Source of the DNA: an uncultured Gammaproteobacteria bacterium
GTDB taxonomy: Bacteria; Patescibacteriota; Microgenomatia; JAMCZE01
DNA length: 64,000 bases
Assembly (NCBI GenBank): GCA_964576435.1
Contig: CAZNUP010000001.1
Location: forward strand, 98,345 to 162,344
Reading direction: 5' to 3'
The notes below the pieces were generated by a model. The model was given only the letters and a program-made list of their open reading frames with translations. It made no database searches and was not told the origin of the DNA. Position numbers and translations under genes: made by a program. Positions 3,964-60,157 of the stretch are shown here, piece by piece (the stretch's first letter is position 1; each line of letters begins with the position of its first letter).

Positions 3964-5279
3964 GGTTTAAGTTTAAGATTTTTTAAGTATTCACCTCTTT
4001 TTTCAAAAAGTTCTTTGCCTGTCAAAAAAAGATCACGTGGTCCAAATCGAACATTCTCTGTTTTTCGTAAAATAATAACACTCAATATCATAATTGTACC
4101 CTCAGTTAGAAACGTATTAAATGCTGCGCCGTATAGTGAAAATCTTGGAATTAAAAGCAAATTGAGTGCCAAATTTGCTCCCAAAGCTAAGATTGCAATA
4201 ATAAATGAATACCACTGCTTGCCAAGAGCTATGATTGCATAACCATTAAGATGGTTAAAGTAGGAAACAACTATAGCTAGTGACAAAATTCTAAGAGCTA
4301 GCACTGACGGCTGAAATTCCGGTCCCCCAAGGATTAAAATCGCTAGGGGAGCAAAGATAAAATTTAAAATAGCTACGGTAACACCCATTCCTAAAAGCAC
4401 CACAAAACTTTTTACATATATTTGTCTAAATCGAGCCTGATCTTTATGAGCAAGATTTGAAAGTATAGGTAGGACCGAATTAGCAAAGTATGCTGCTCCT
4501 AAAACCAACACATCATACACTTTGTATGACGCTCCGTAAAATCCAACCGCTTCAGCCCCCTTCATATAACCAAGAATCACAATGTCCAGGCGGTTATAAA
4601 CTGTAAATAAAACTAGAAGTGATCCAACAGGTAGGGCAGCCTTAACTACCCTGGCCATAATTTCCTTATCAAACCCGAACTTCCATTTGACAAGTTTAAA
4701 CGCAAAAAACATCGCAAGAGCCAATGATGCTACCTGGCCAAGATTCATCGCCCATATAAACCCAGATATTCCTGAATCCTGTGTAATTAGGTACAAAACC
4801 AAGACAAGCCCTAATACATTCGCAGCTAGTTCCGAAATTGCCCAAAACTCCATTCTAAGTTTTGCATTAAAAACAATCTGGAAAGATGTCTTAAGAGAAA
4901 AAAGTACAATAAACACCGATCCAATGAGGATAAGACCCTCCATAGAAGGGGAGTGGGGGAGGACGCGAATAACAATGTTGGCAAGAATTGCCGCAAGGAA
5001 GGCCAAAACCAGTCTCAGCGTCAAAATATTTCCAGCAATTAGACCTTCCTTTTCAGGGTTTTTACTAACCTCATTGATTCCGACAAGATACAAACCCCAG
5101 TCAGCAATTGACCCAAACATCATCACAAATACAAGAACGAAGGTATAATCTCCATAACCCTTAGGACCAAGGTACCGAGTCAAAAAAATAGTAATTGCCA
5201 AACCAAGCCCAGTAGTAATGACTTTCCCCAGAAGTTGAATCCCAGTATTCCATGCAACTTTCCCTGAATGTGAACTCAT
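3960..5279 (-). CDS. Polysaccharide/oligosaccharide flippase, MOP superfamily (Wzx-like)
   Basis: About 12 predicted TM helices. The N-terminal 'NTGIQLLGKVITTGLGLAITIFLTRYLGPKGYGDY' is typical of Wzx/polysaccharide biosynthesis protein family. The 4-nt overlap with the upstream gene suggests an operon. Confidence 0.7.
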   Translation of the reverse strand: MSSHSGKVAWNTGIQLLGKVITTGLGLAITIFLTRYLGPKGYGDYTFVLVFVMMFGSIADWGLYLVGINEVSKNPEKEGLIAGNILTLRLVLAFLAAILANIVIRVLPHSPSMEGLILIGSVFIVLFSLKTSFQIVFNAKLRMEFWAISELAANVLGLVLVLYLITQDSGISGFIWAMNLGQVASLALAMFFAFKLVKWKFGFDKEIMARVVKAALPVGSLLVLFTVYNRLDIVILGYMKGAEAVGFYGASYKVYDVLVLGAAYFANSVLPILSNLAHKDQARFRQIYVKSFVVLLGMGVTVAILNFIFAPLAILILGGPEFQPSVLALRILSLAIVVSYFNHLNGYAIIALGKQWYSFIIAILALGANLALNLLLIPRFSLYGAAFNTFLTEGTIMILSVIILRKTENVRFGPRDLFLTGKELFEKRGEYLKNLKLKP

Positions 5280-6481
5280 TCCCTTATTCTAGCAAAAGCC
5301 AGCCCAAGAATTAGAGCGACAAGAAGTTGTCCCTGCTGTAAGGTGAAAAAGTAGTGGTCAACCATCCCTAAAAACAGAATAGATACCAAGCTGGCAACAA
5401 ACACCCATTCTTTGTGTCTCCATACTCGGTAAATTGCCAATCCGAAAACGGCCACTAATCCAATTAGTCCAAGCACTCCAGTTTCACCTAAACTCATAAG
5501 GTAAATGCTGTGCGTTGGCTGGTAACTAAGTGCGTAATTTTTAATTCTAATTTCCGGGTTTTTATATAACGGACTGGTTCCAAGTCCAGTTCCTAAAATA
5601 GGGGAGCGAACAAAGTTTTCCTCTGCAAGAACACTAAGTTGCCCTCGAACTTCAAGAGATTCAAGGCGACTTGGTAAACACATTGATAAAAGCCCAATAA
5701 TAATTGCCAAACAAACTAGAAATATCAATTTCTTCCCAGATTTTAAATACAAAACAATCGCTATTTGTGTAAGACCCACACTAATTGCTGCCCGGGACAT
5801 AGTTAAAAATAAGGTAGATAATCCAAACGCTAAAACCCCTGCGGTAATCTTGCGGAATTTATGCGGGAAATAATATAAAATTAAGGGTAGAGTAATCGCC
5901 AAAAAGCCTCCTAAAACGTTTGGATGAGAGAAAGTTCCATATGGCCTAAGAACTAGTTGTCCATCAAAACTAGTATTAGCAACTCCCGGAGTAATCGAAT
6001 TAAAAGATCTTTCGCCAAAAAGCCAAAACACTCCGCCAAGTGACCCAATTTTCCAAAATTGAAGAAATGAAAGAGCTGATTCAAAAAAAACTGGGATCAC
6101 TAAAAGTAGAGTAATCGTCCTAATTTTTATATTGCTTTGATAAATCCACCACACCAGAAACGCAAGTTCTAAGACTTTCAGCCATTTATAAATTGAAACA
6201 AAAGGGGATAGGGAAGTGGCTATATTTAATATAGCTACTAGGGCTATAACTCCAAAAATAATTAACCTTTTTCCAGAAAACCACTTAAAAAGTTTCTTAA
6301 ATGCGAGAAGGAAAAGAACAAAAACCAAAATATCAGTTAAGTATAAAGTAGGGGAGAAATAATCAACTCTAACTCCTGAAATAAATGCAAAGTCTGGCCA
6401 AAAATGCCGTCCCAACTGGCTAGGTAACAAAATTATCAGTAAATAAAATGTGTATGTTTGTAATTTTTTCAAGCTCGACAC
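5276..6481 (-). CDS. O-antigen ligase-like / Wzy_C-type polytopic membrane protein
   Basis: Polytopic membrane protein with a periplasmic loop region. It shares an operon with the flippase. The assignment rests on topology and context only. Confidence 0.5.
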   Translation of the reverse strand: MSSLKKLQTYTFYLLIILLPSQLGRHFWPDFAFISGVRVDYFSPTLYLTDILVFVLFLLAFKKLFKWFSGKRLIIFGVIALVAILNIATSLSPFVSIYKWLKVLELAFLVWWIYQSNIKIRTITLLLVIPVFFESALSFLQFWKIGSLGGVFWLFGERSFNSITPGVANTSFDGQLVLRPYGTFSHPNVLGGFLAITLPLILYYFPHKFRKITAGVLAFGLSTLFLTMSRAAISVGLTQIAIVLYLKSGKKLIFLVCLAIIIGLLSMCLPSRLESLEVRGQLSVLAEENFVRSPILGTGLGTSPLYKNPEIRIKNYALSYQPTHSIYLMSLGETGVLGLIGLVAVFGLAIYRVWRHKEWVFVASLVSILFLGMVDHYFFTLQQGQLLVALILGLAFARIRE

Positions 6482-6565
6482 AAACTCATACTACAATAGC
6501 GTCTACCAGAAACCAACAACAAAATAAATATAGACAAATTTAATTTGATAGTTTAAAAATGGGTT

Positions 6566-7150
6566 GTGATTAAAACTCAAACAGAAGAACTCCTAGATCT
6601 GGTAGCAGGTTTAAACCATCTTCCAATATCAAAACAGTTTCTCGAAAGACTATCAAAAGGAAACCCCACCCGTGACGAAAACCCAGAAAGTCATTTTTGT
6701 GTCTATTTTGTTGCTTTCGACCCAAAAGAGGAAAAAATATTTACAGGTTTGCACAAAAAATCTAATTTATGGCTTGTCAACGGCGGCCATTTAGACAAAG
6801 AGCCAGTTAAAAACGCAGCACCAAGAGAAATGGGTGAAGAATGGGGTTACAATCTTCCAGATGGATATGAATTAATTCCTCAATTTTTAACCATAGCAAA
6901 TATTACAGACAGGCCCCAGATTAAATGTCGCACTCATTATGATTTCTGGACTTTCGTTCCTGTTAATATGCATGAATTTAGTCCAGATCAAGAAAAATTG
7001 GCATCCGAATACCATAAAACAGCCTGGTTATCATTCGAAGAAGCAAAAAAAGTAACAACAGACCCAAGCAACTTGTTGGGCTTTGACTTTATCAAAAAGT
7101 ATTTACTACCCACAAAGCCCAAACCTCTCAAGCTTCTGCACATCTCTTGA
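6566..7150 (+). CDS. NUDIX hydrolase
   Basis: Nudix box 'GGHLDKEPVKNAAPREMGEEWGY' fits GX5EX7REUXEEXGU. Confidence 0.75.
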   Translation: MIKTQTEELLDLVAGLNHLPISKQFLERLSKGNPTRDENPESHFCVYFVAFDPKEEKIFTGLHKKSNLWLVNGGHLDKEPVKNAAPREMGEEWGYNLPDGYELIPQFLTIANITDRPQIKCRTHYDFWTFVPVNMHEFSPDQEKLASEYHKTAWLSFEEAKKVTTDPSNLLGFDFIKKYLLPTKPKPLKLLHIS

Positions 7151-10267: not shown

Positions 10268-11653
10268 TTGGCCTCAATGGACTTAGAAAAAATTTGGCAC
10301 CAAGTTTTAGCCGAGCTTGAAGTTGAACTGGGTAAAAGTCAGTTTAGACTTCACTTCCAAAATTCCGAACTCATTTCCTTTGAAGATGGCATTGCTAAAA
10401 TCAGTTTTCCCAATAAAGGGATTGCTGACCAAGTTAACATTCGCTATTACACCCTCATTCAAAATTCACTTCAAAAAATCTCTTCAATAGACAAAGTTAG
10501 TCTTGTTTTTGAAGTTAAAGTAAAGCCACAAACTAAAACAGAAGACACAAATCCTGAAGAACTAGGTCCACTTTTTAACTCAGAAAGAGAGGACCAAGAA
10601 GAGTTCATTCAAGCGGTTAAGAGAAATGGTCTTCGCTCCGATTTTTCCCTAGATGAATTTTGTGTTTCAACAAGTAATCAGTTAGCTTTCGCCGCCGCTC
10701 AAGCAGTTATTAAAGATCCAGGCAGAAACTATAATCCATTTTTCATTTGGGGCGGAGTTGGAATTGGCAAAACTCACCTAATGCAAGCAATTGGCATAGA
10801 GATCTTGAGAAAAAACCCCAGAGCAAGAATTGTTTATGCTTCCTGCGAGCAATTTACAAATGAAATCATCCAAGGTATAAGGAGCAAAAACACTCATGAT
10901 TTCAAAGAAAAGTATCGTGGAGCAGACGCACTATTAATAGATGACATTCAATTTCTTTCCGGCAAAGACACAGCTCAAGAAGAGTTTTTCCATACTTTTA
11001 ATGCAATCCAACAAAGAGAAGGTCAAATAGTCATGACTTCAGATACTAAGCCTTCAGACATTAAAAATTTAGCTGACAGACTAAAGAGTCGTTTTGAAGG
11101 TGGATTAGTCGCAGACATATCTGCACCCGATTCTGAATTAAAAACAGCTATCTGTCTGCTAAAAGCTCGCAAAAGAGGAGTCGAATTATCCACAACGGTA
11201 GCATCTAGTATATCCAGTAATGTGGATAATATTCGTTCACTAGATGGTGCAATAAAATTAGTTATTTCAACAGCTTCTTCAGAAAATAAAGAAATAACTC
11301 CTGAGTTCGTATCTGAAGTTTTGAAAATTCCTTTAGAACAAGGGTCAGCTGGCAGGCAAACCCTTGATGCTAGAACTATTCTTGATGAGGTTTGTAACTA
11401 CTATGGTCTCTCAATTAAATTAATAAAGGGTGACAAAAGAGATAGACCAATAGCAGAACCTCGCCAAATCCTCATGTACCTCCTAAGGAAACAAACCAAA
11501 ATGACTTTAGATGAAGTCGCTGCCTTCCTTGGGGGAAGAGACCACTCAACTATTATTCATGGCGAAGACAAAATAGAAGCCCTTGTAGAAACAAACGACC
11601 GAATTAAAAAAGATGTCTCCGCTATTGAGCTTCGCCTAGGTGTGACTAACTAG
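10268..11653 (+). CDS. dnaA: Chromosomal replication initiator protein DnaA
   Basis: Walker A '[15 protein letters not shown]', AAA+ core, and C-terminal DnaA-box binding domain ('[38 protein letters not shown]'). Confidence 0.95.
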
Positions 11654-11924: not shown

Positions 11925-13049
11925 ATGAAGCTAGAAGTCCTACAAGAAAACTTATCGTCCGCTTTGACAACTGCCACAAGAATTATTAGTTCCAAACCTC
12001 AACTTCCTATTCTAACTAATGTCTTCCTCAAGGCCTCAAAAGAGGGAAGTCTCTTAATTGCTTCAAATGTTGATTCTACAATTATTGTTCCGTTTGGATC
12101 TAAAATCATTGACGAAGGTGAAATCTGTGTCCCTGGTAGAACTTTCCAAGAATTAATTTCCTCTCTCCCAAGCGACAAAATAATTCTCGAAGCCAAAGAA
12201 ACCTCTTTAATTGTTAAGGAGTTAAAGTTCCAAGGAAAAATAACTTGCATGCCCGGAAGCGACTTTCCAACGCCTCCCAAAGAACCTAACGCAACAGTTT
12301 GGAAAATGTCAAAGAATACTTTTCAAACCGCACTCAGTGAAACTCTATTTTCAGCAGCTGTTGATGAAACAAGAGCAGTTTTAAACGGTGTTCTATTTAA
12401 ATTTGATGGAAGTGCACCTATGTTGGTTGCAACCGATGGTTTTAGACTCTCTAAATATACACTGGAGTCGGATTCTAAAATTCCCAAGGATTTAACTCAG
12501 TTAGTTCTTCCTTCTAAAGCGCTTCAAGAAGTTTCCAGATTGCTTTCCGATTCAAGTGTTGGTGATTTTGAAATTCATTTTGGAGAAACAAACACCGTTT
12601 CCTTTTTAATTGGAGAAATTGAATTCTATTCACAAACTATTGCTGGTAATTTTCCAAGTTTCGAAAAGATAATTCCCTCAACATTTGACATTAAGATTAA
12701 ATTAAACGCCGAAGAGTTATTAAAATCTATAAAAAGTGCCGCCATTTTCGCAAGAGAAAATGCCAACATTATTAATTTTAATATTCATGACAACACAATG
12801 ACCGTCCGGGCTCAAGGTGGGGAAGTCGGAGAAAATGAAACAGAACTTGATATTGAAGTAGAAAAGCCACCAGTTGGTAGTTTTAGTGTTTCTTTTAATT
12901 TTCGCTATGTTTTAGATTTCCTAGGGAGTTTAAATGGTGCTAAGGACATAACCCTGGAACTTGGTACACCCACTTCTGCTGCGCTTTTTAGACCTATAAA
13001 AGTAGATAATTACCTCCATATTATTATGCCTGTGAGAGTGCAAGGCTAA
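11925..13049 (+). CDS. dnaN: DNA polymerase III beta subunit (sliding clamp)
   Basis: 374 aa. The N-terminal 'MKLEVLQENLSSALTTATRIISSKPQLPILTNVFLKA' is typical of DnaN. Canonical position after dnaA. Confidence 0.9.
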   Translation: MKLEVLQENLSSALTTATRIISSKPQLPILTNVFLKASKEGSLLIASNVDSTIIVPFGSKIIDEGEICVPGRTFQELISSLPSDKIILEAKETSLIVKELKFQGKITCMPGSDFPTPPKEPNATVWKMSKNTFQTALSETLFSAAVDETRAVLNGVLFKFDGSAPMLVATDGFRLSKYTLESDSKIPKDLTQLVLPSKALQEVSRLLSDSSVGDFEIHFGETNTVSFLIGEIEFYSQTIAGNFPSFEKIIPSTFDIKIKLNAEELLKSIKSAAIFARENANIINFNIHDNTMTVRAQGGEVGENETELDIEVEKPPVGSFSVSFNFRYVLDFLGSLNGAKDITLELGTPTSAALFRPIKVDNYLHIIMPVRVQG

Positions 13050-13095
13050 TTTATCTCTCGATTTAAATAACCCATAGTATGATATAATTTAGTTT

Positions 13096-13941
13096 ATGTT
13101 ATTACATAGATTGCTGGGTATCTCTTCGGAAAGAAATTACTCTGACGAACAATTTTTGGCAATTGTGAAGCAAGAAGGGTTTCAAGATAAGATACTTCAG
13201 GAAGATCCAATTAGCAATCCTGATATATCAGAGGCTGCAAGAATCCTATTTTCCTTTATTCCTCCTGTTCCAAACGATCCACGATGGCTCCTCGCTCAAA
13301 AATTTTCTCAATTAAGAGATATGGAGGGAAGGAAACCTGGCTTTGCACTACATAATGGCTTAATGAGCATTTATCTTTCTAAAAATATAAGTTATAGAGA
13401 TGGGTTTGCTTCAACATTGTCCGAACCTAATATTCGCCAACATTGTCGCGCAATGTGGAACATGGAGTTTGCTAGAAAGCTTGAAATGTCTAACAGGCAA
13501 CAGCGCCTACAAATTTCAAATGAATTTTATCTACGGTATGCCCGCACAGAAAGTGTTCAGAGAGGTAAGGATGAAAAGGGAGTTACTGGATGTCCCGAAT
13601 CACTTTCTCAAGTTCAGGCGTTTTATGAGGGAAATTATATAGGTAGAGTAGGATTTAATGCACATATTGAGGGAAGCTCGACAATAATTTCAATTGTTAA
13701 CATGCAAGGTGTTCCCGGTGTTGATTATCGAGAATTTCAAGATCAAGCACAAATACCTATCTTCAATACTCTCGTTAAAGCTGTGAGTACTCTGAGTGAA
13801 ACATTAGATGGGACAAATTATATTGAACTTCGTGGGCTTAAGAACCCAAAAAATGGGGACAGTCGACTATATAACTCCGTGTTAAAAAGAGAAAAGATTG
13901 ACCGTTATCACTATAAGCATAAACAAAGAGTAACTAGTTAG
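13096..13941 (+). CDS. Hypothetical protein (281 aa), no recognisable motif
   Basis: Long ORF with protein-like composition. It occupies the slot where recF/gyrB usually follow dnaN, and is convergent with the VirB4-like gene. Confidence 0.4.
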   Translation: MLLHRLLGISSERNYSDEQFLAIVKQEGFQDKILQEDPISNPDISEAARILFSFIPPVPNDPRWLLAQKFSQLRDMEGRKPGFALHNGLMSIYLSKNISYRDGFASTLSEPNIRQHCRAMWNMEFARKLEMSNRQQRLQISNEFYLRYARTESVQRGKDEKGVTGCPESLSQVQAFYEGNYIGRVGFNAHIEGSSTIISIVNMQGVPGVDYREFQDQAQIPIFNTLVKAVSTLSETLDGTNYIELRGLKNPKNGDSRLYNSVLKREKIDRYHYKHKQRVTS

Positions 13942-15806
13942 GCTACTCTCACATTTCCAGCCTGAGGTGATGGTGGAGTCGATTTTGTCTTATCAAGTGG
14001 GTTAGTTGTAATTAGTTTGTATTCATCAGGTGAAGCAACTACTCTCATAGCGACATGTGACGCTCCCGCAAAAAATAGTCCCTCTCCAACATTTGCCGAT
14101 AAAAGCAAACTTTTCTCTCCTTCAGATAAATAGAATATGTCGGCCACTTTTTCAATTGCCGCAGGGGACTGTTTCATAAGAATCTGAATAGATGAGTTAG
14201 TGACAACTGTTTTTCCAAGATCCGTTGCCAAAAAATCCTCGATATCTTGAGTAATGGTTGTTAAACCAAGATAATATTTTCGAGCTCTCTTTGCAAAGTT
14301 CCATAAAAATTCTGCTGATGCCGGATCCTTCATTAAATACCACGCTTCATCCACAATTAAGATCCTCTTTTTAATTTCTCGCTTCATTGAGTTCCACATA
14401 AAGTCCATGATAATGAAAATCGCAATACTTCTAAGTTGGTCTTCAAGATTCTTGAAAGAAAAAGCGGTGAAGTTGTTATTAAGTTTGATATTGCTTCGCT
14501 GATTAAAAATCGTCCCAAAGCTTCCTTTAACAAACTTCTCAAGTCTAAGAGCAATATTTTGTGCCGCTGTGGTTTCCATTCCAACAAGTACCTTGTAGAG
14601 ATCTTCTAAGATAGGGGGTTCATTCTTATGTGTGGATGGATCAAAAGTAATTCCTTTCTGTCTGTATGTAAGTTCCAGTGCGTTGTGAAGAATTGCCTCT
14701 TCTTCAGCTGTCGTTGTCCCAACCATTAGCTTTAAAAGCCTAATAAGCGTAAATCCGATTTTGTACTGCAAATCATTTTCTTGTGGGTCATCGTTAGTTC
14801 CCGCCAGATCAAATGGATTAATGTGGGTATCACTTGAGAAAGAGAATGAAATATAGTCACCACCAACGCTTTCTGCTAAGGGCTTATATTCTTCTTCAGG
14901 ATCAATAATGATCACTCCCGCTCCAAACATTAGTGACCGAAGTGCCTCAAGTTTAACAAGGAAAGATTTTCCGCCTCCCGACTTTCCAAGCACAACCTCA
15001 TTAGCATTTTCCATGCTAAACCTATCAAAAATTATTAGTGAATCATTGTGCTCATTAATCCCATATAAAACACCTTGGTTAGCAGTAAGTTCTGATGAAG
15101 TAAATGGAAATGTTGTAGCCAGGGAAGTTGTGTCCATATTTCTTGTGATCATCAGTTTATCGACACAAAACGGTTGTGTTGTCTTAAATGCATCCTCCAT
15201 TTGAAGTGCTGATCTTTTTCCAATGAGAAGTAGGGAAGCAAGTGTTGACTCAACCTGTTTTGAAATTTGGTTAAGGTCAGGGAGATTTTCCGCTGACACC
15301 GTCACATATAAACCAAACTGGAAAAATCTCTCCGCCCCCTTGGCTAGTTGCTCCTGCATCGATAAAGCATCGTCAAGTGCTACTTGGACGGATGGATCAA
15401 TAACCCGGCCTCTTTTAATGTCACTTTCAATAGTCGCCTCCATCTCAGCAATCTTTCTCTTAAGATTGTTAAGAATATCTCTTGATTCAACTGGATATAT
15501 AAACATTGCCACATCCATCGAAGAGTCGAAATTGATAATAGGTGATAGCCAATTTGCTGCTACAAACCTTGGGTATCCAGATACAAACAGCGATCTATAG
15601 TAAGCGTTACCAATCTTCAAATAGTCAAAATCCACTTCTATGGATTCAGGGGCAATCAGATCAACAACCGGTGAATCTGGCATTTTAATTTGTGGACCTT
15701 TGTCTTTGATATCGCTCTGATTAACGCTCGCAAACGCTGGTCCCGCACTCTCAACTTGAGGTTTAGGAGGTGGGGCGCTTTTAGATAAAAATGTTGGTAA
15801 TTTCAT
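13938..15806 (-). CDS. VirB4/TrbE/PrgJ-like type IV secretion ATPase, central plus C-terminal ATPase part
   Basis: Walker A 'GKSGGGKSF', Walker B 'ILIVDEAWYLM'. The central 'YYRSLFVSGYPRFVAANWLSPII' region is typical of VirB4 (yxrtl.v..yP...). Size and layout match the CagE/TrbE/VirB4 family. Confidence 0.8.
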   Translation of the reverse strand: MKLPTFLSKSAPPPKPQVESAGPAFASVNQSDIKDKGPQIKMPDSPVVDLIAPESIEVDFDYLKIGNAYYRSLFVSGYPRFVAANWLSPIINFDSSMDVAMFIYPVESRDILNNLKRKIAEMEATIESDIKRGRVIDPSVQVALDDALSMQEQLAKGAERFFQFGLYVTVSAENLPDLNQISKQVESTLASLLLIGKRSALQMEDAFKTTQPFCVDKLMITRNMDTTSLATTFPFTSSELTANQGVLYGINEHNDSLIIFDRFSMENANEVVLGKSGGGKSFLVKLEALRSLMFGAGVIIIDPEEEYKPLAESVGGDYISFSFSSDTHINPFDLAGTNDDPQENDLQYKIGFTLIRLLKLMVGTTTAEEEAILHNALELTYRQKGITFDPSTHKNEPPILEDLYKVLVGMETTAAQNIALRLEKFVKGSFGTIFNQRSNIKLNNNFTAFSFKNLEDQLRSIAIFIIMDFMWNSMKREIKKRILIVDEAWYLMKDPASAEFLWNFAKRARKYYLGLTTITQDIEDFLATDLGKTVVTNSSIQILMKQSPAAIEKVADIFYLSEGEKSLLLSANVGEGLFFAGASHVAMRVVASPDEYKLITTNPLDKTKSTPPSPQAGNVRVA

Positions 15807-16471
15807 TATGTTTTAATTCCAGACATAGCCGCTTCATTTTTCCCAGCCACCTTGTCATGGTTATATATATCGTAGAAAAGTTCAATAAGCTCAGTTGTGG
15901 TCATTTGTCTTGCTCTAAGCCCCAGTCTTCCAACCTGCCTTAAGATGTGATCCCTTTTAGGAAGCAGTGATAATTTTGACTTCTCAAGTATCCGCTCCAA
16001 AGGAAGTGGCAATCCCTGTTTTTTCTTAATATTAAGGACACTTCCAGTAGCCGATCCAACCCCAAGTTCTAAAGAGCTAAATGGAATAACAATGTAAAAC
16101 TTTTTATCTAAAACATTATTATCTTTAACAGTTTGAACAATAAACTCTTTATATTTCTTAATCTGTTCCTTAAGAAGGGGATTAGTTTGTTTTCGTTCCT
16201 CGGTTTCCAAACTAGCGACATATTTGGAAATATCTTTTCTTTGACTTCGAACCACAATTTGAATCGAAAAATTAAGAGAATTTAAAAGTCCAGCATATGC
16301 AAAAATCATTGCCTCCTGTTCGGATTCGGATAACAGTCCAAAGTTAACTGCAGACACACGAATTACCAAGGCCACAGACCCATCTTTAAGAATCACCAAG
16401 TCGTCTCTAATATCAGCAACTTCCAAGTGATCTTGTGTCGTTCCTCTGATTGCAATTTTTGCTGTATCCAT
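15806..16471 (-). CDS. VirB4 N-terminal domain-like protein (separately encoded; translationally coupled to the downstream ATPase ORF)
   Basis: 'HLEVADIRDDLVILKDGSVALVIRVSAVNFGLLSESEQEAMIFAYAGLLNSL' follows the VirB4 N-terminal pattern (vdd..ltkdGsl.a.l.l.G.df..ls.eel...l..L). Its stop overlaps the next ATG as TAATG at 15804-15808. Confidence 0.5.
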   Translation of the reverse strand: MDTAKIAIRGTTQDHLEVADIRDDLVILKDGSVALVIRVSAVNFGLLSESEQEAMIFAYAGLLNSLNFSIQIVVRSQRKDISKYVASLETEERKQTNPLLKEQIKKYKEFIVQTVKDNNVLDKKFYIVIPFSSLELGVGSATGSVLNIKKKQGLPLPLERILEKSKLSLLPKRDHILRQVGRLGLRARQMTTTELIELFYDIYNHDKVAGKNEAAMSGIKT

Positions 16472-17910
16472 TAGTTTTGTACCTCCTGAGCTTTAGCTCT
16501 TATTTGAATTGGTTTAAGAACTGATCCGTCAAGTGCTATCTTCCAAACATCAAATACTTGTCCTGCTTTCTCAAGTTCCAAATAGTATTCTCCAGACGGA
16601 AGTGGAGTATTAGCAATGAAATTGCCCAGTCTACTTGTTCGGAGAGCCCTAACTGAATTTGCCTGCATGTCTTTAATTGTAATAATTACACCGTCAAGTG
16701 GCACTCCATTAGAATCATAAACGAGTCCATTAACTACATTTGGTTGACTAGTAAGTGCTACAGGCATCGGATCAGAAACAACTTGAGGTTTAGGTTTGGG
16801 AACTGCATTTGGATCTCTAAACGGTTCTTTATAAGCTGGTTGCGATAGAGGTGCTACTTTCTGAAGTGTCATTTCCTCTCTCGCCTTTCCAACTTCAGAG
16901 TAGACCTGGTTTTTTTCTTCAACCAATTTCTCAAGTTGTGGCATCAATTTTGAAGCATCTCCACCAGATTCGTTAATGTTATAAATCTGGTTTCTAAGTT
17001 CATCAACTTTCATCATGATTTCTTTATTCTTTTCTGAAAGCTCATTAAGTCGTGCTTCTTTCAGAGACAAATCACTATCGGATTTCTCCATTGTTGCTGT
17101 TGTTGTGTGTTCTCGCTGTGTCATAAGGTCATCAATTGTCATTGCTGGAGTTGGAGGTTCAGAATTTGTTGATTGTTGTCTTTGTTTTAAAAGCTCATCA
17201 ATTGACAAAGCTCCTGCTACTCCAGAATTAACCGGAGGTGTCGTCTCTATGTGGTTCGGTGTCACAGATTGTGGCGTTTGTTGTGTTTCTGTTTGTGGAA
17301 CAGGTTGAGGTGCAAGGACGGGCGCCATGGGTGTTTGTGGTGTAATGGGCGTAGGTGAAGGTGTTTGAATTGGCTGAATGGTCGGAGTTTCAGTGACTGG
17401 TGTACTAGACATCGTTGTTTGTTGTGCCTCGACAGGTTGTGTCGGCTGTACAACCGGTGCAACAGGTGTTAGTGGTGCAATTGGGGTTGGCGGGGGAGTA
17501 ACTGGAGTTGGTTTTGGTCCAACATTGTCAGCAGCCATTAAAGGTAGTGTTTCATTGTGAGTCCCAAGTGGCACAAATCCTTGTTTAACTTCAGGTGGTT
17601 TCTCAACAGATACTTGTTGTGCATCTTTTCTCCACGTAAAGTATGTTGGTCTGTAAATTGCCTTGAAGAAGTTGGCTAGCCAAACATCAAGTGGTCTTTC
17701 TTGAATTGGTAAAAACGCGAGTGCAACACCAAAGAAAGCAAAAAATATCACCAGTGGCCATTTGATTATCGGGTGGAGTCCTGAAGCAAAAAATAAATAT
17801 GCAAGAATCGCTCCTCCAGCTAATTCTCCAAACTGCTTAAGCGTCATGTCACCAACCAGTTTGAATTTGAACCCTGTAATATCTTGCGGTACTGCGTGCT
17901 GTTCCATCAA
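16471..17910 (-). CDS. PrgI/VirB3-like two-TM T4SS membrane protein with a long C-terminal extension (Pro/Thr-rich linker, coiled coil, C-terminal beta-sandwich-like domain)
   Basis: The N-terminal 'DITGFKFKLVGDMTLKQFGELAGGAILAYLFF' plus a second TM helix resembles the PrgI family (VirB3 analog). It sits immediately upstream of the VirB4 ORFs and overlaps the next gene by 1 nt. aa ~115-230 are PT-rich, aa ~280-350 coiled coil, and the C-terminal ~85 aa are beta-rich. Confidence 0.5.
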   Translation of the reverse strand: MMEQHAVPQDITGFKFKLVGDMTLKQFGELAGGAILAYLFFASGLHPIIKWPLVIFFAFFGVALAFLPIQERPLDVWLANFFKAIYRPTYFTWRKDAQQVSVEKPPEVKQGFVPLGTHNETLPLMAADNVGPKPTPVTPPPTPIAPLTPVAPVVQPTQPVEAQQTTMSSTPVTETPTIQPIQTPSPTPITPQTPMAPVLAPQPVPQTETQQTPQSVTPNHIETTPPVNSGVAGALSIDELLKQRQQSTNSEPPTPAMTIDDLMTQREHTTTATMEKSDSDLSLKEARLNELSEKNKEIMMKVDELRNQIYNINESGGDASKLMPQLEKLVEEKNQVYSEVGKAREEMTLQKVAPLSQPAYKEPFRDPNAVPKPKPQVVSDPMPVALTSQPNVVNGLVYDSNGVPLDGVIITIKDMQANSVRALRTSRLGNFIANTPLPSGEYYLELEKAGQVFDVWKIALDGSVLKPIQIRAKAQEVQN

Positions 17911-17927
17911 CTATACCCCGAAGATTA

Positions 17928-17957
17928 TTGTCAAAATTTCGGGCAGAAAAATAATAT
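17928..17957 (+). promoter_or_regulatory. Possible sigma70-like promoter (TTGTCA-18 nt-TAATAT) upstream of the NUDIX gene at 18039
   Basis: Hexamers read directly from the sequence. Spacing of 18 nt. AT-rich context. Purely a pattern match. Confidence 0.25.
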
Positions 17958-18038
17958 ACACAGATCATCCTAACAACCCAAATATGAAAAACAATAGGGG
18001 AGTGATTTTCACATACAATTAGTTATAATTTAGATATT

Positions 18039-18452
18039 GTGAATGAGGATATTTTCCACCTTGGAATAAAAGCCATTATTCGAGACGTAAATGGAAAAAT
18101 TTTATTGAACAAGAAAATTTCAGGACAATACTGGGATTTGCCTGGTGGTAGGATTTCAAAAGGGGAAACAGTCGAACAAACACTTAAAAGAGAGTTGAAG
18201 GAGGAAATTGGAGTGAACGAAATCAAGTCAATGTTTCCATTTTCCATGGTGATCTCCAATTTTAGACTCACCAAAGAAGGAGATGTTGGATTGATTTTAT
18301 CAATATATCTTTGCGAGCTGGAAAATATAAATAATATATCAGCTAAAGAACCTGAAACAGAAATATGTTGGTTTGAAGTATTGGAAGCGAGTAGGTTGTT
18401 AGAGGCAAAATATCCAAAGAATTTTACTGAGGAAATTAAAAAACTTAGATAA
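18039..18452 (+). CDS. NUDIX hydrolase
   Basis: Nudix box 'GGRISKGETVEQTLKRELKEEIGV'. Confidence 0.75.
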   Translation: MNEDIFHLGIKAIIRDVNGKILLNKKISGQYWDLPGGRISKGETVEQTLKRELKEEIGVNEIKSMFPFSMVISNFRLTKEGDVGLILSIYLCELENINNISAKEPETEICWFEVLEASRLLEAKYPKNFTEEIKKLR

Positions 18453-18454
18453 CT

Positions 18455-19138
18455 ATGGAAAAACCAATCTTTGATGAAGAAAAGTTCTCCAAAAGTGAGC
18501 AAAACGGGCTGGCGTTATTGGGTCAAGACGATCTAGTAATATTTGCACCTGGTGTAAGCACTGGCGGAATTGCCGAGATGAAAATGGCTTCTGGTAATAA
18601 TAAAAGGACCGTAATTGGGACAACAATTGATGAGGTAGGTGCAGAGCATGCGAGAGAAATGATAATAAAATATGGACTAGACGGACAGGTGCAAATCAAA
18701 GTTGAAGACGTATCAAAGCCACTCCCATATGCTTCGAACAGCTTTGACTTTATTTATGCAAGATTGGTTCTACATTACCTTTCTAAACAGGATTTAGATT
18801 CATCGCTTGCAGAACTCAATAGAGTGCTCAAACCCACAAAGAAAATATTTGTTGTAGTTAGATCAGATAAAAACGATGAAACCACCGCGCCAGACTCAGA
18901 ATATGATTCAGAAACTGGCTTCACATATGTGGTGTATAAAAATCCCAAAAATGGAGAAAAAGTCAAATCTAAAAGATATTTTCATTCAGAAGAAACGATC
19001 ACGAGTCACATAAAAGGCGCAGGCTTTTTAATTTCATCTATAAGCTCTTACGATGAGCAGTTATACATCGACTTTGAGCGCAAATTTATATCTCCAAAAA
19101 TAGACAACCTCATTGAGGTAATAGCTACAAAGCCATAA
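18455..19138 (+). CDS. Class I SAM-dependent methyltransferase
   Basis: Motif I-like 'LVIFAPGVSTGGIA' and Rossmann-type layout. Adjacent to the NUDIX gene (3-nt gap). Confidence 0.6.
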   Translation: MEKPIFDEEKFSKSEQNGLALLGQDDLVIFAPGVSTGGIAEMKMASGNNKRTVIGTTIDEVGAEHAREMIIKYGLDGQVQIKVEDVSKPLPYASNSFDFIYARLVLHYLSKQDLDSSLAELNRVLKPTKKIFVVVRSDKNDETTAPDSEYDSETGFTYVVYKNPKNGEKVKSKRYFHSEETITSHIKGAGFLISSISSYDEQLYIDFERKFISPKIDNLIEVIATKP

Positions 19139-28542: not shown

Positions 28543-28980
28543 ATGAAACCCATAAAATTTGCCTTAGCTGTAGTAATCAAGAATCCAAAAAACCCGGATG
28601 AGGTGCTTGCTGTCCTTAGGCCACCAGACGCAAAAAGCTTACCTAATATTTGGGGGTTGCCAGCAGTCTCTCTGAAAGAAAACGAAACTCCTGAGGTGGC
28701 AATTGTAAGGCTGGGCAAAGAAAAGCTCGCTACTACCATAGTGCCCAAAGAATTTATTGGTGTAGATACTGATGAACGAGATTCACACCAACTAGTTCTA
28801 ATGGATATTGAGGTCGAGGTGACAGGACCAGAGCCAGAAGTTCAAAAAGGCACTACGAATGATACAAAATATACAGGGCAAAAATGGACCAGTGATTATT
28901 CTGTTTTCATCCCTGGTGCACAAAAAGGTTCCGTTTGTGATCGAGTTTTCCTAAAGTCCAGAGGCATTTCCTGGCAATAA
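28543..28980 (+). CDS. Hypothetical protein, possibly a degenerate NUDIX-fold protein
   Basis: 'GLPAVSLKENETPEVAIVRLGKEKLA' loosely resembles a Nudix box but does not satisfy REx2EE. Treat as hypothetical. Confidence 0.35.
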   Translation: MKPIKFALAVVIKNPKNPDEVLAVLRPPDAKSLPNIWGLPAVSLKENETPEVAIVRLGKEKLATTIVPKEFIGVDTDERDSHQLVLMDIEVEVTGPEPEVQKGTTNDTKYTGQKWTSDYSVFIPGAQKGSVCDRVFLKSRGISWQ

Positions 28981-42155: not shown

Positions 42156-42863
42156 TTGAAAATACGAGTCATGGAACTAAAAATTCATGACTTTCAAATA
42201 TTAATTCTGAGAGAACTACTTTTTAAACCAGGTGCACGGTTTAGTGATCTTAAGAAAGTCGATGTCACCAATGACCATTTTTCCTTTCATATAAACCATC
42301 TTCTAAAAGAAAACCTAATTAAAAAAGAAAATGGGAAATATTTCTTAACTACCGAAGGTAAGGAGTTTGCAAACCGCATGGATACTGACTCCTTAAAGCT
42401 AGAAAAGCAAGGAAAGTTGGCAATTGCTATCCATGCTGTCCGAACTAAAGACGGCAAAAAAGAATACCTGATTCACAAAAGACTAAAGGAACCATTTTTT
42501 GGTTGGTATGGTTCCCAAAGTGGCAAAATTCGTTGGGGAGAAAATCCGCTTGACTGTGCCAAAAGAGAATTCCTTGAGGAGACAGGGCTGACTGGCGATT
42601 TTACATTGAAGAAAATCCACCACGATTTTGTTTTAGATAAATCAGGCAAAATTTTAGAAGATAAATATTTCTGGGTTTATCGTGTGGACAATGTTAGTGG
42701 AAAGTTAAAGGAAAAGATTAAAGAAGGAGAAAATATATGGGTAACAAAAGAACAATATAAAAAACTAAAAAATGTATTTGCTTCTTTTGAATCAATGTCA
42801 GAAACCATTGAAAGCGACATTCTATTTTATTCAGATAAAACTTCAGTAGCTGATAAATTCTAA
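42156..42863 (+). CDS. Winged-helix (HTH) domain fused to a NUDIX hydrolase domain
   Basis: N-terminal 'ILILRELLFKPGARFSDLKKV...HINHLLKENLIKKENGKYFLTTEG' is wHTH-like. Nudix box 'GSQSGKIRWGENPLDCAKREFLEETGL'. Confidence 0.6.
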   Translation: MKIRVMELKIHDFQILILRELLFKPGARFSDLKKVDVTNDHFSFHINHLLKENLIKKENGKYFLTTEGKEFANRMDTDSLKLEKQGKLAIAIHAVRTKDGKKEYLIHKRLKEPFFGWYGSQSGKIRWGENPLDCAKREFLEETGLTGDFTLKKIHHDFVLDKSGKILEDKYFWVYRVDNVSGKLKEKIKEGENIWVTKEQYKKLKNVFASFESMSETIESDILFYSDKTSVADKF

Positions 42864-53811: not shown

Positions 53812-54825
53812 TTAGTTTCCTTTAATCAAGCTCCAAGTTGCATATTCTTCTCGCTTAAGGTCAAACCTGTCTTTAGGCTGTCTTTTAAGTGAGTGGGCAA
53901 AGTGAGGTATTAGTTCTTTCCCTTCATAGCTTTTTATTATTTTTGGATGAATGTAATAAGTCCTGCAAACCGTTTTTGTATTTCCAAGAAGCTTCGAGAC
54001 TTCAGATACAGCGTCAATTATGTTCTTTTTTATCCCTTTAGCATCCTCTCCGTTACCCTTGGTGTAAAGTGATTCACCAGCCATAACGCTTCCTCCCCAG
54101 GTTCTAAAATCTTTTGCTGAAAAATCAGACCCCGCATAGGTTTGTAAGTATTCATTTACATCAGCTGAGTCAATTGTTTGTGGTTGTTTATTCTCATCTA
54201 TATATTGGAAAAGTTCATACCCAGGCAAATCAATACATTTCTTAACTGTTTTAGCTACAGTTGGGTGTGTTACTCCAAGTTCATGATCGACTCCACTTTT
54301 CCCCCTAAAGCTAAATGTCACTTTGTTTCCCACAACATCAACGTGTTTGTTTCTCATTGTGGTAAGTCCATAAGATTGATTCTCTTCAGCATAAACTTTA
54401 TTCCCAACTCTTATAAATGTATGTTCAAGAAGCCACACGACAGTAGCAACTATCCTATTTCTAGTTAAAGTTGGGTCTTTCATGTGTCCATCAACTGTTT
54501 TTCTGAGTTCTGGGAGTGCTTCACCAAAACTCACCATCTGTTCAAACTTGTGCTTCTGGTTGTGTTTAACTAGGTCTGGGTGATAAATATATTGTTTCCG
54601 CCTCTTTGCGTCGGTTCCAATAACTTGAATATAAGATAGTGGGTCAGATGCAATTAAAACTTCAGTCCAAGCGGGTGGAATTGCAAACTCTAAAATTCTT
54701 TCTCTATCTTTTTCAGAAACGACTTTTCCGTCTTCATCTACAAAACTGAAGCTATCACCGTTTTTTCTGCGCCTTAAATTTAAGTTTAAATTTTTAGGAT
54801 AGTGAAGTGTCATTGTCCTTCCCAA
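53812..54825 (-). CDS. Type IB DNA topoisomerase (poxvirus/eukaryote-like TopIB)
   Basis: 'FRGKSGVDHE', 'DFSAKDFRTWGGSV' and the C-terminal 'TVCRTYYIHPKII' (catalytic Tyr in an SKxxY-like context) match the bacterial TopIB layout of about 330 aa. Confidence 0.7.
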   Translation of the reverse strand: MGRTMTLHYPKNLNLNLRRRKNGDSFSFVDEDGKVVSEKDRERILEFAIPPAWTEVLIASDPLSYIQVIGTDAKRRKQYIYHPDLVKHNQKHKFEQMVSFGEALPELRKTVDGHMKDPTLTRNRIVATVVWLLEHTFIRVGNKVYAEENQSYGLTTMRNKHVDVVGNKVTFSFRGKSGVDHELGVTHPTVAKTVKKCIDLPGYELFQYIDENKQPQTIDSADVNEYLQTYAGSDFSAKDFRTWGGSVMAGESLYTKGNGEDAKGIKKNIIDAVSEVSKLLGNTKTVCRTYYIHPKIIKSYEGKELIPHFAHSLKRQPKDRFDLKREEYATWSLIKGN

Positions 54826-55169
54826 GGGGTCATAAGCTGGAAATAGTTTCCATCAGGATCAGAAAGAGTTGCAATCCAAGCACCTTGCATTTCATAAGGT
54901 TCTTTAACTGAAATTGCACCTGCTTTAACCATTCTGTCAAACTCTTCTTTAACTTCTTTTGTTTCAAAATTAAACATCATTCGTGCTGGTTCTTTTGATT
55001 GCCCTTTAACTTCTGAATGTGGACCCACTGAGAAAAATGTGTCTCCCGCTTTCCATCCTGTCCAATCTCCATCTTGCATCATAGGTTCCATGCCAAGGAC
55101 TTTTGTATAAAACTCTGATAACACTTTTGGCTGACTTGACCCGATCATTATTGAATTTAAATTAATCAT
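54810..55169 (-). CDS. VOC/glyoxalase-family protein
   Basis: About 120 aa with paired beta-alpha-beta-beta-beta modules. 'DPDGNYFQL' is a typical VOC C-terminal motif. Confidence 0.65.
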   Translation of the reverse strand: MINLNSIMIGSSQPKVLSEFYTKVLGMEPMMQDGDWTGWKAGDTFFSVGPHSEVKGQSKEPARMMFNFETKEVKEEFDRMVKAGAISVKEPYEMQGAWIATLSDPDGNYFQLMTPWEGQ

Positions 55170-55186
55170 ATAATTTTATTCTATCA

Positions 55187-55591
55187 CTACTTTGGTGCTT
55201 TAGTTTCATCAATATAAGTTAGTTCCCAAATATGTCCATCGATATCAGAGATACTTTGTGAATACATCCATCCATAATCATCAACTGGCCTGTTTATTTT
55301 TCCACCATTTTCGACTGCAAGTTTACTAAGTTCATCAACTTTTTCTTTACTATCAAATGAAATGGCATTAATAACTTCAACGTTTTGAAAACTATCAACA
55401 ATATTTTTATTTGTAAAAGTTTTAAAAAACTCTTCTTTGAGAAGCATTGCAAAGATATTGTCACCTAAAGTCAAAGCGGCTGCCTTCTCATCAGTAAATG
55501 TCTTATTAAAGCTAAACCCAAGATTCGTCCAAAAGTTCATTGTTTTAGAAAGATCTTTAACAGGAAGATTAACAAATATTTGCTTAACCAT
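55187..55591 (-). CDS. VOC/glyoxalase-family protein
   Basis: 'DIDGHIWEL' is a VOC-type C-terminal motif. Size about 134 aa. Confidence 0.55.
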   Translation of the reverse strand: MVKQIFVNLPVKDLSKTMNFWTNLGFSFNKTFTDEKAAALTLGDNIFAMLLKEEFFKTFTNKNIVDSFQNVEVINAISFDSKEKVDELSKLAVENGGKINRPVDDYGWMYSQSISDIDGHIWELTYIDETKAPK

Positions 55592-55807
55592 AGATATATT
55601 TTAACAACTTGATAAAATATTTTCTATACAAAAGATATTCAATTTTTGTGGTTTGACACCCATTTCTACTAGAAGTAACTATTTGTACGTTTATAAATCC
55701 AAGTTTAAAAAAATAAATCTCTAGGTTTGAATTGGCTATATTTTAATTTGTTGGAGCTATTCCCTAGGAGTAGTGCCCCATATTTAGCCGTAAGCTAAAT
55801 TTAGATA

Positions 55808-56209
55808 TTATCCACGTGGATTTGGTTGAAGTGTTCCCACTCTATTTCCTTCAGAATCTTCAATTGCGACGTATTTTCCAATTCCCGGAATATCCATAGG
55901 TTCTCCCAAGATTTTTCCTCCCGCCTTCTTTACCATTTCCATGCTGGTGTTAATGTCTTCAACTGCAATCACAACTGAGGGCATTTGAAATCCAGGTTTA
56001 TCGGCTTTTGGAAAAAACCCACCATTAATTGTTCCAGGAGTTTTAACCATTCCGTTCTCGTCAGTATCAGAGGTCTGGGCCATTACATATCCGCCGTATT
56101 CTTCACCAGCAATTTGCATTTTCCATCCAAACGCTTCCTCATAAAATTTAACTACTCGAGCTTTGTCAGACGCTGGCATCTCAAAATGAACTACTGGGTT
56201 TGGTTTCAT
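55808..56209 (-). CDS. VOC/glyoxalase-family protein
   Basis: 'HFEMPASDKARVVKFYEEAFGW' and 'DSEGNRVGT' are typical of VOC. Confidence 0.65.
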   Translation of the reverse strand: MKPNPVVHFEMPASDKARVVKFYEEAFGWKMQIAGEEYGGYVMAQTSDTDENGMVKTPGTINGGFFPKADKPGFQMPSVVIAVEDINTSMEMVKKAGGKILGEPMDIPGIGKYVAIEDSEGNRVGTLQPNPRG

Positions 56210-56223
56210 ATACCTATTTTAAC

Positions 56224-56601
56224 TTACCCTTTGATAGTTTTTAAACCATCAAGGTCTTCGTTTAATTTAGCTTGTCCCTTAATCAATTTTTTTATTAGAT
56301 CAGTTTGCAATTTCTCACTAAGAGGCAGTTGAATTGTGCCTTTGGTCATTTCATATCCCTTAAGTTCCTTTTCAAACTCTTTTCTAACCGGTTCTTTTAT
56401 TCCATAAAGTCCAATATGTTTTTCCCAAAAAGCAAAATAGGCAAGCCACCCATGATATTTATAAGCAGGCATTGAATAACTAATTCTCTCCTCAGCACTG
56501 GGGACCACGTCCTTTATAATTTTCCTAATTTCTTGAAGTCTTCCTTGGATTTCTTTTGGAGCCAAAGCTATGTATTGGTCAACATTTTTGAAGGAATTCA
56601 T
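56224..56601 (-). CDS. DUF1801 (YdhG-like) family protein
   Basis: 'YSMPAYKYHGWLAYFAFWEKHIGLY' resembles the DUF1801 core. Confidence 0.5.
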   Translation of the reverse strand: MNSFKNVDQYIALAPKEIQGRLQEIRKIIKDVVPSAEERISYSMPAYKYHGWLAYFAFWEKHIGLYGIKEPVRKEFEKELKGYEMTKGTIQLPLSEKLQTDLIKKLIKGQAKLNEDLDGLKTIKG

Positions 56602-58313: not shown

Positions 58314-58787
58314 TTGGTCACCCAAACAATTTCTAAGAGGACTATAATAAAACAAATTAATAAACAATCATTTTCTATTGGGTTTTTATACCACGCAGAT
58401 TCTGCTCGGTTCCTTCTTCAAAAAGACCATGAAAGTGGGCCTTCCAATTGGAAGCTGATGGGCTCCAAATGTCTTACCAAATTTAGTGCCCAAAGCTTCA
58501 AGAATTTAGTGCAAAAACAGCTAAATCTCGAGATTCAAACACTTTCTATTCACCATATCTATGATTACTACCAACGTGACTTGGGCCGGGACAATTTTGT
58601 CTCGTATGCCGAAGTCGAAAGTTTAAAAGATTTTCCTGAAATATTAAATCAAACATTCGCCTGGTTCACTCTAAAAGAAATCTCTAAACTTTCACTCTCC
58701 CAACAGACCAAACAAGACCTTATTGTTGGTCAAAGGGTGATTGACTCCGATAACAGAAGAAAAACTGGTGAAAGAACAATCGGCTAA
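58314..58787 (+). CDS. Hypothetical protein
   Basis: ORF only. Confidence 0.3.
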   Translation: MVTQTISKRTIIKQINKQSFSIGFLYHADSARFLLQKDHESGPSNWKLMGSKCLTKFSAQSFKNLVQKQLNLEIQTLSIHHIYDYYQRDLGRDNFVSYAEVESLKDFPEILNQTFAWFTLKEISKLSLSQQTKQDLIVGQRVIDSDNRRKTGERTIG

Positions 58788-58808
58788 TCGGGGATTATTA
58801 ATATTTCT

Positions 58809-59309: not shown

Positions 59310-59394
59310 TTAATTATTCTAACATGTCGTGGAAATTTTCATTAGGATCGCTAGTTGGGTGATTTACGAACCTTTCGCATAAATCCAAGTTCTT

Positions 59395-60048: not shown

Positions 60049-60157
60049 CTCCTTAGACTTTAGTCGTTTTTAATAAGGACTATTCGCTCCGCCTCATAGA
60101 AGATGAGAGAACTTACTTTCTCAACCAAAAACAACTAGTCCCACTATATATGCCGTC

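Follow-up and report, generated by a model that had tools for sequence, protein, structure and literature searches.

What would a fragment of a conjugation machine be doing beside a chromosomal replication origin, with no mobility genes around it? The question is raised by positions 13938-17907, minus strand, of the 64,000-nt stretch of DNA analysed here (hereafter, the window), where an earlier reading made from the letters of the DNA (the sequence-only reading) had proposed a two-gene, type IV secretion system (T4SS)-like module composed of a PrgI/VirB3-like membrane protein and a VirB4 ATPase. Using open reading frames (ORFs) together with Pfam, NCBIfam, PDB, fold and species-genome comparisons, we find three genes rather than two, arranged head to tail in the order prgI/virB3-like, trsD-like and virB4. 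The middle gene, which that reading had left unidentified, encodes a TrsD-like protein:

16471-17907, minus strand: prgI/virB3-like gene, 478 aa; membrane anchor, linker, helical hairpin and C-terminal beta-sandwich
15806-16471, minus strand: trsD-like gene, 221 aa; detached first part of the VirB4 N-terminal domain
13938-15806, minus strand: virB4 gene, 622 aa; remaining N-terminal domain and RecA-like ATPase domain

Judged by family profiles and gene order, these three genes are the conserved VirB3-TrsD-VirB4 core of a T4SS found in most members of the phylum Patescibacteria. We think it likely that they encode the two-piece motor and the anchor of a chromosomal, non-conjugative machine whose partners are encoded elsewhere in the genome, and which provides a pilus or conduit for host contact. 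Comparisons with relatives rest on a scan of one genome per species, which yielded 80 loci (L003-L082), all of Microgenomatia type, of which 78 were analysable.

The motor is readily recognized. The 622-aa protein scores 382 bits against the NCBIfam model NF045971 (VirB4-like conjugal transfer ATPase, CD1110 family), above the cut-off of 325, with the VirB4 of Mycoplasma integrative conjugative elements (ICEs) and TraC as the next-best NCBIfam families. It also matches Pfam P-loop_TraG (PF19044) at 1.5e-32, and over residues 242-600 it can be aligned to the C-terminal domain of Thermoanaerobacter VirB4, for which a structure has been solved (4AG5, E=1.6e-46). Within this RecA-like domain both nucleotide-binding motifs are intact, so that the VirB4 call of the sequence-only reading stands:

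14964-14987, minus strand: Walker A, GKSGGGKS, VirB4 aa 274-281
14340-14363, minus strand: Walker B, ILIVDEAW, VirB4 aa 482-489

What this polypeptide does not contain is a whole N-terminal domain. Its alignment to NF045971 covers only profile positions 186-751 of 752, the first ~185 positions being absent, and it is the TrsD-like protein, encoded between the virB3-like gene and virB4, that matches VirB4 profiles at their N-termini (CD1110 positions 15-121; Mycoplasma VirB4 positions 112-233). Fold comparison likewise finds the TrsD-like protein to resemble the first part of the VirB4 N-terminal domain. At one relative's locus, L068, a single 820-aa ORF (4174-6636) joins TrsD (residues 6-204) to VirB4 (residues 230-803). 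Taken together, the truncated profile coverage, the N-terminal matches of the TrsD-like protein and the L068 fusion show that VirB4 is made here as two polypeptides; the TrsD-like and 622-aa proteins together tile one full-length monoderm VirB4. As a member of the TrsD/TraD family itself, the middle protein falls short, scoring 25.7 bits against NF041427 (E=8.8e-6) where the cut-off is 200, and it carries the precomputed Pfam assignment PF26593 (TraC-like), as do all 120 of its homologues among the matches listed. When the TrsD-like and PrgI-like proteins were searched by sequence against the PDB, nothing meaningful came back; for these two proteins only fold comparisons were informative.

Two loci depart from this arrangement in ways that may be biological or technical. 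The L068 fusion could be real or an assembly frameshift, two separate genes being found at every other locus showing both. At L014 (10001-11856), from the species representative nearest to the window (88% identity), two ORFs of 179 and 448 aa take the place of a single virB4 reading frame; a frameshift, a pseudogene and an assembly error are all possible.

Homologues of the ATPase also indicate whose DNA this is. Among 8000 candidates scored, 7992 reach E<=1e-10; those among the matches listed are 63-100% identical, and the organism-named ones are nearly all Patescibacteria, Gottesmanbacteria, Woesebacteria or Shapirobacteria. The VirB4 homologues and the related loci thus point to Microgenomatia, in keeping with the suggestion of the sequence-only reading that the DNA comes from a Candidate Phyla Radiation (CPR) organism. 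Many of the relatives' own records are titled 'uncultured Gammaproteobacteria', 'Pseudomonadales', 'Nevskiaceae' or 'Bathyarchaeia' despite a Microgenomatia dnaA-dnaN-virB4 synteny (for example L004-L009, L026 and L047), and such titles are unreliable.

The three genes are translationally coupled via TAATG overlaps: TAATG is found at both gene junctions, where a stop codon and the following start codon share one base. GGAGG precedes the start codon of the trsD-like gene. For the prgI-like gene the called start is the ATG at 17907, which gives a 478-aa product that is the exact database sequence P0243, with precomputed Pfam assignments PF12666 and PF13620. The version in the ORF list, 479 aa from a TTG (16471-17910, minus strand), has no exact entry in the protein collection. 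A promoter and terminator scan of 13000-18600 gave counts at chance level (13 vs 14.5 and 3 vs 3.4). A hairpin spans the virB4 stop codon at 13950-13926; it was not counted as evidence.

Is this trio peculiar to one genome, as a 'minimal' or 'reduced' apparatus might be? It is not. Of the 78 loci, 66 have TrsD directly upstream of VirB4 and 60 have all three genes; contig ends account for most of the others. Downstream, dnaN follows at 0-5.3 kb in 54 of the 78, a figure to be set beside the only 56 loci that hold at least 8 kb on that side. Conservation of the trio next to oriC in related genomes, a possibility that the sequence-only reading had raised, is therefore borne out, and its notion of a distinct reduced apparatus gives way to that of a conserved phylum-wide core; what this lineage and its nearest relatives have stripped is the layout alone. 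Those relatives (L003-L008 and L014; 77-88% VirB4 identity) show the same bare succession of PLD, Nramp, PrgI, TrsD, VirB4 and dnaN.

The degree of sequence conservation is equally telling. VirB4 and TrsD have median identities to the window of 63% and 55%, DnaA and DnaN of 42% and 36%. In every one of the 51 loci having all four genes, VirB4 and TrsD are each more identical than DnaA, and VirB4 more than DnaN. Loci with a higher VirB4 identity also tend to have a higher DnaA identity (rho 0.43, p 0.002). Synonymous divergence (dS) is saturated, and hence undefined, even against the closest loci, and the comparison with DnaA and DnaN was made instead on nonsynonymous divergence (dN) and amino-acid identity; measured against the three closest loci, virB4 has a dN of 0.13-0.17 and dnaA one of 0.30-0.33. 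The trio is fixed beside dnaN and dnaA across the class, under stronger constraint than DnaA or DnaN. Judged from sequence comparison, this conservation pattern is that of a vertically inherited core function and not of a mobile element or its remnant.

Some relatives vary the theme. In L070 and L073, PrgI-TrsD and VirB4 stand on opposite sides of the dnaN-dnaA-yidD-yidC-jag block, an apparent inversion around the origin, and such a split arrangement implies that the trio need not be one operon. In loci of Gottesmanbacteria type (L036, L051, L061, L062, L066, L067, L076, L078 and L082), a divergently oriented clpB lies directly upstream of the prgI-like gene.

The position by the origin can be described from the window itself. 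The genes rpmH, rnpA, yidD, yidC and jag/KhpB lie on the minus strand ahead of dnaA, followed by:

10268-11653, plus strand: dnaA
11683-11774, no strand assigned: cluster of five DnaA boxes, none with more than one mismatch, between dnaA and dnaN; probable oriC
11925-13049, plus strand: dnaN

Cumulative GC skew falls across dnaA and dnaN without turning, despite the clustered DnaA boxes. Because the skew shows no turn at dnaA, it is gene order and DnaA boxes that identify the origin, and together they uphold the placement near oriC made by the sequence-only reading. That reading had put the module ~2 kb beyond dnaN. The trio in fact spans 0.9-4.9 kb past dnaN, the virB4 stop codon being only 0.9 kb beyond the dnaN stop at 13049, and it lies ~2.2 kb from the cluster of DnaA boxes. 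An origin-near position may raise gene dosage (PMC12102498).

The anchor is the least conventional member of the trio. Its N-terminal part was correctly taken for a PrgI/VirB3-like domain with two transmembrane (TM) segments: residues 7-85 score 28.4 bits against Pfam PF12666 (gathering score 27), an AlphaFold2 model built from 40 sequences shows the hairpin, and the two TM helices are followed by a further helix. The virB4 gene is only trsD away. The remainder of the protein is less expected:

17620-17907, minus strand: PrgI/VirB3 domain, aa 1-96; conserved N-terminal motif, TM helices 23-41 and 46-65, amphipathic helix 73-96
17212-17619, minus strand: Pro/Thr/Val/Gln-rich low-complexity linker, aa 97-232; non-conserved, predicted disordered
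16843-17202, minus strand: helical region, aa 236-355; long antiparallel hairpin 258-313 / 321-355, with a predicted local distance difference test score (pLDDT) >90
16474-16770, minus strand: prealbumin/transthyretin-like beta-sandwich (CarboxypepD_reg-like), aa 380-478; pLDDT >90

VirB3 proteins are 10-15 kDa, with short cytoplasmic ends only (PMC12857230). At 478 aa, with ~380 aa after the PrgI domain, the protein in the window departs from that small size. Its linker is 24% Pro and 17% Thr, has a pLDDT <50 and gives no homologue matches. The confident beta-sandwich in the model comprises residues 393-470; it scores 26.1 bits against Pfam PF13620, below the gathering score of 32.3, and by Foldseek it resembles the transthyretin-like domain of carboxypeptidase D as well as CnaB2 and pilin domains (E ~1e-5). 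Among 70 family members from related loci, 66 have the N-terminal PrgI domain and all 70 have the ~90-residue beta-sandwich, always at the extreme C-terminus, and the sequence of the helical region (aa 236-355) is recognisable in 28. Total length varies from 263 to 959 aa, the linker being non-conserved. The sandwich goes unmentioned in the main text of PMC12102498 and in two of its supplementary files.

On which side of the membrane would the C-terminal domain sit? A charge count over 40 homologues gives 1.7 and 4.8 Lys plus Arg in the flanks of the hairpin and 0 in its loop, a pattern from which both the N- and C-termini are predicted to be cytoplasmic. This prediction agrees with canonical VirB3 topology (PMC12857230). 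An exhaustive search with the 99-residue sandwich domain recovered 2082 cluster representatives at E<=0.001, and the 150 matches listed include two kinds of protein. Those of the first kind, up to ~1000 aa with a single C-terminal copy at 42-66% identity, are the PrgI-like orthologues, the shortest of them probably fragments. Those of the second kind are ~860-3900 aa and carry 8-22 tandem copies at ~25-34% identity; CarboxypepD_reg, SdrD_B and SpaA repeats were found in five of six sampled. Repeats of these types are typical of cell-surface proteins. A domain of surface-protein type on a predicted cytoplasmic side is a conflict, in which we regard cytoplasmic placement as the more likely, because long Pro-rich cytoplasmic tethers, such as the FtsK linker, do exist.

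We entertain, tentatively, the idea that the VirB3-like subunit of Microgenomatia is more than an anchor, and that the sandwich on its tether of ~100-800 residues has a role of its own. If so, and if the sandwich were extracellular, the topology would be unlike that of canonical VirB3 and the domain could be a wall-spanning, host-contacting or pilus-base element. If it were cytoplasmic, as the charges predict, it could serve as a docking site on a tether, recruiting substrates or partner ATPases.

Where, then, is the rest of the machine? Pfam scans of ~66 further ORFs in the window found housekeeping, transport and envelope genes, and no relaxase, coupling protein, VirB6, VirB1, VirB8, pilin, hydrolase, integrase or transposase, with ~12 ORFs lacking any Pfam match. 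Hidden Markov models (HMMs) built from the relatives' accessory genes found no match among window ORFs of at least 40 aa. The claim that the window holds no other T4SS or mobility gene is thus sustained, with divergent components possible among the ORFs that lack a match.

More distant relatives are richer. Proteins of ~120 aa occurring in arrays match T4SS_pilin (PF18895), with 44 genes across 12 loci. Nineteen loci encode a ~500-aa protein with ~10 predicted helices (family f10), which has no Pfam, NCBIfam or PDB sequence match and accompanies T4SS_pilin arrays, upstream or downstream of the trio, in L018, L019, L025, L069, L015, L041, L042, L044 and L054. Its size, helices and position, and these only, suggest that f10 may be the VirB6 'missing' from Microgenomatia. 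Directly after virB4, in L018 (11782-14478) and 11 other loci, comes a ~900-aa membrane protein (f14) whose C-terminus is an M23 peptidase domain (profile vs PDB, E=1.4e-18); it is likely a VirB1-type wall hydrolase of the kind found with monoderm T4SSs. It is followed by f18, a protein of ~346 aa with one helix, which has no Pfam or NCBIfam match and no PDB sequence match by profile. Nine loci have a divergently oriented ~730-aa coupling-protein-like ATPase with TrwB and TraG-D signatures. The other conserved neighbours of the trio (f29, f47, f27, f33 and f17) have no Pfam or NCBIfam match.

Since such partners lie beside the same trio in relatives, and none lies in the window, the trio appears to be what stays constant in a larger system, the remaining genes of which have been dispersed in this lineage. 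By analogy with those relatives, we infer that the partner genes are elsewhere in this lineage's genome. The sequence-only reading had allowed that partners might be elsewhere or novel. The first half of that proposal gains from their presence beside the trio in distant relatives, which makes them missing or relocated here, and the location itself is extrapolated from the relatives.

How much of this is new? The module is real and ordinary for its phylum, and has already been described in papers of 2023-2025 (Wang et al. 2023, PMC10633639; Quinonero-Coronel et al. 2025, PMC12102498). Of 3,035 Patescibacteria genomes, 2,417 encode VirB4, which forms a clade inside MPF_FATA; TrsD is its commonest companion, and a PrgI-type VirB3 is found beside VirB4 (PMC12102498). 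The genes most often found near virB4 in Microgenomatia and Paceibacteria include dnaA, dnaN, rnpA and rpmH, relaxases are very few, and co-option has been proposed (PMC12102498), a view with which the 'repurposed' interpretation of the sequence-only reading agrees. The locus in the window shares with this clade an adjacent, chromosomal VirB3(PrgI)-TrsD-VirB4 set near dnaA and dnaN and the absence of a relaxase, in the window as in the published loci (PMC12102498; S. epibionticum SEML1_0006-0019, PMC10633639). It also shares a VirB4 related to monoderm MPF_FATA ATPases, and Microgenomatia is a class for which proximity to dnaA/dnaN is reported. It differs in that this lineage has no pilin array, VirB6-type protein, hydrolase or coupling protein next to the trio.

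There are further minor, documentable differences from what has been reported. Only 22.6% of Microgenomatia VirB3 homologues were counted near virB4 (PMC12102498), whereas the PrgI-like gene is adjacent in 60 of our 78 related loci; published HMM counts thus greatly understate how often a VirB3-like gene neighbours virB4 in this class. To this higher adjacency may be added the stripped layout, conservation above DnaA and DnaN, and the invariant sandwich. The residual novelty is the unexplained extension of the VirB3-like protein. The locus is a clean Microgenomatia example, nothing categorically new, of a system that belongs to the small number of machines with a demonstrated essential role in the epibiotic life of these very small bacteria.

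Outside the phylum, the closest gene order is that of TrsC-TrsD-TrsE on pGO1, which likewise runs from a two-helix protein through a ~220-aa protein resembling the VirB4 N-terminus to a ~620-670-aa VirB4 from which that segment is absent; the pGO1-type subclass of MPF_FATA is the only one with TrsD (PMC12102498). Unlike the trio, pGO1-type systems serve plasmid conjugation and have a relaxase, coupling protein and oriT, and TrsC-type proteins are small, without the 380-aa extension. The sequence-only reading had preferred a PrgI-PrgJ order, as on Enterococcus pCF10. On pCF10, too, a PrgI-family anchor gene lies directly upstream of, and overlaps, the VirB4 gene, and a 1:1 complex is predicted (PMC12857230); pCF10 differs in having a PrgI of 117 residues and no separate TrsD gene, and in being conjugative. 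Because VirB4 is split in the window and a TrsD-like gene intervenes, the two-gene PrgI-PrgJ layout is rejected and the order is closer to that of pGO1. R388 TrwM/TrwK (VirB3/VirB4; solved structures 7O41-7O43) differs in being a diderm system with an outer-membrane complex, ~13% sequence identity and a VirB4 (TrwK) that, unlike the split protein here, is a single polypeptide of 823 aa. ComB of H. pylori and Ced of Sulfolobales resemble the locus in putting VirB4-family ATPases, with no relaxase, to a non-conjugative use. They differ in that CedB and CedD scores fall far below cut-offs and that no ComB or Ced partner genes occur in the window.

How might such a machine work? VirB3 topology and 1:1 binding to VirB4 have been described (PMC12857230). 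By analogy with R388 and pCF10, the hairpin and following helix of the PrgI-like protein would bind the TrsD/VirB4 N-domain 1:1, and the anchor would thereby keep VirB4, as a hexamer, at the membrane. By hydrolysing ATP, VirB4 may then drive assembly of the channel and of VirB2-type pilins. The pilin arrays, a polytopic VirB6-type protein, an M23 hydrolase and a coupling-protein-like ATPase are presumed to be encoded elsewhere in the ~710-kb genome. By extension from Saccharibacteria, the assembled, non-conjugative machine would build a pilus or conduit at the contact with the host cell and be needed for growth. S. epibionticum cannot grow on its host without the T4SS and its pilins, and the system has no recognised relaxase (PMC10633639). 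The role of the Patescibacteria T4SS has been called 'completely unknown' (PMC11665869), and both effector delivery and uptake of host molecules have been suggested (PMC11665869, PMC12857230).

Several points weigh against this account of the locus as the core of a host-contact machine. Essentiality and pili have been demonstrated only in Saccharimonadia, a different class; the PrgI-TrsD-VirB4 complex is, for this clade, carried over from R388 and pCF10; the 64-kb window is without any partner gene by Pfam scans and accessory-gene HMMs, so that placing the partners elsewhere draws on relatives and the literature; and the model leaves unexplained a ~380-aa C-terminal extension that has no counterpart in characterised VirB3 proteins. 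Could the VirB4 core, then, power import of host DNA, nucleotides or other molecules, as ComB or Ced do, rather than export or pilus assembly? Uptake has been raised for Patescibacteria, which are unable to make nucleotides, comEC being dispensable in S. epibionticum (PMC11665869, PMC12857230). Import would fit the absence of a relaxase or coupling protein nearby, and VirB4 does find weak matches in the archaeal import ATPases CedB (1.9e-13) and CedD (1.4e-4). Those matches amount, however, to 49.9 bits vs a cut-off of 700 and 20.7 vs 600, which places the protein outside the Ced families, and its best families are the conjugative VirB4s of Firmicutes and Mycoplasma. Import, an argument from analogy, concerns the direction of transport only and would leave the parts list identical; we regard it as unlikely.

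A bolder possibility is that the trio is self-sufficient in this lineage, having lost the classical partners and operating alone or together with unrecognised proteins, with the tethered beta-sandwich in place of pilins or adhesins. The sandwich is, after all, invariant in the family, VirB6 is scarce in Microgenomatia (PMC12102498), and the accessory families are absent within ~10 kb in the nearest relatives (L003-L008, L014) and within 46 kb in the window. Yet relatives whose trio is flanked by pilin arrays, the 10-helix protein and the M23 protein carry the same sandwich, and this coexistence argues that it is no replacement for them. Pilin arrays are, moreover, especially abundant in Microgenomatia, and coupling proteins occur in 2,918 of 3,035 genomes, mostly away from virB4 (PMC12102498), making self-sufficiency improbable. 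Decay of an integrated conjugative element beside the origin is hardly credible. Its appeal lies in the best-scoring VirB4 families, which are ICE and plasmid conjugation ATPases, and in the presence of only three T4SS genes. It has to contend with intact and coupled ORFs, with the same position in dozens of species and with conservation above DnaA and DnaN. Nor does the window look like an ICE, as the sequence-only reading had itself concluded: the Pfam scans found no integrase or recombinase, relaxase or coupling protein, ARAGORN found no tRNA in the 64 kb, and the G+C of the region is ordinary, with no compositional break (0.39-0.40 for the trio, inside the window range). With the trio beside dnaN in 54 of 78 loci as well, we reject an ICE remnant on the grounds of intact coupled ORFs, fixed position and the absence of mobility genes from the window. 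The preferred reading remains that of a conserved core of the Patescibacteria T4SS with its partners probably encoded elsewhere.

Several features of the surroundings deserve record. Between dnaN and virB4 lies a 281-aa ORF (13096-13941, plus strand) with no family match, whose stop codon shares four bases with that of virB4. Only this lineage (L001 and L002) has it; in the species nearest to this lineage, the 3' ends of virB4 and dnaN overlap by 25 nt. On the other flank of the trio are genes for a NUDIX hydrolase, a methyltransferase and an Nramp transporter. Toward the right end of the window, 58314-63784 contains four ORFs without a Pfam match, interrupted by 58809-59309 (PF06983); this block includes a 945-aa protein (60947-63784, minus strand). 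At 53812-56601, three glyoxalase/bleomycin-resistance-like genes and one DUF1801 gene come after a gene for a type IB topoisomerase (PF01028). Finally, four separate NUDIX genes occur in the 64 kb, at 6566-7150, 18039-18452, 28543-28980 and 42156-42863.

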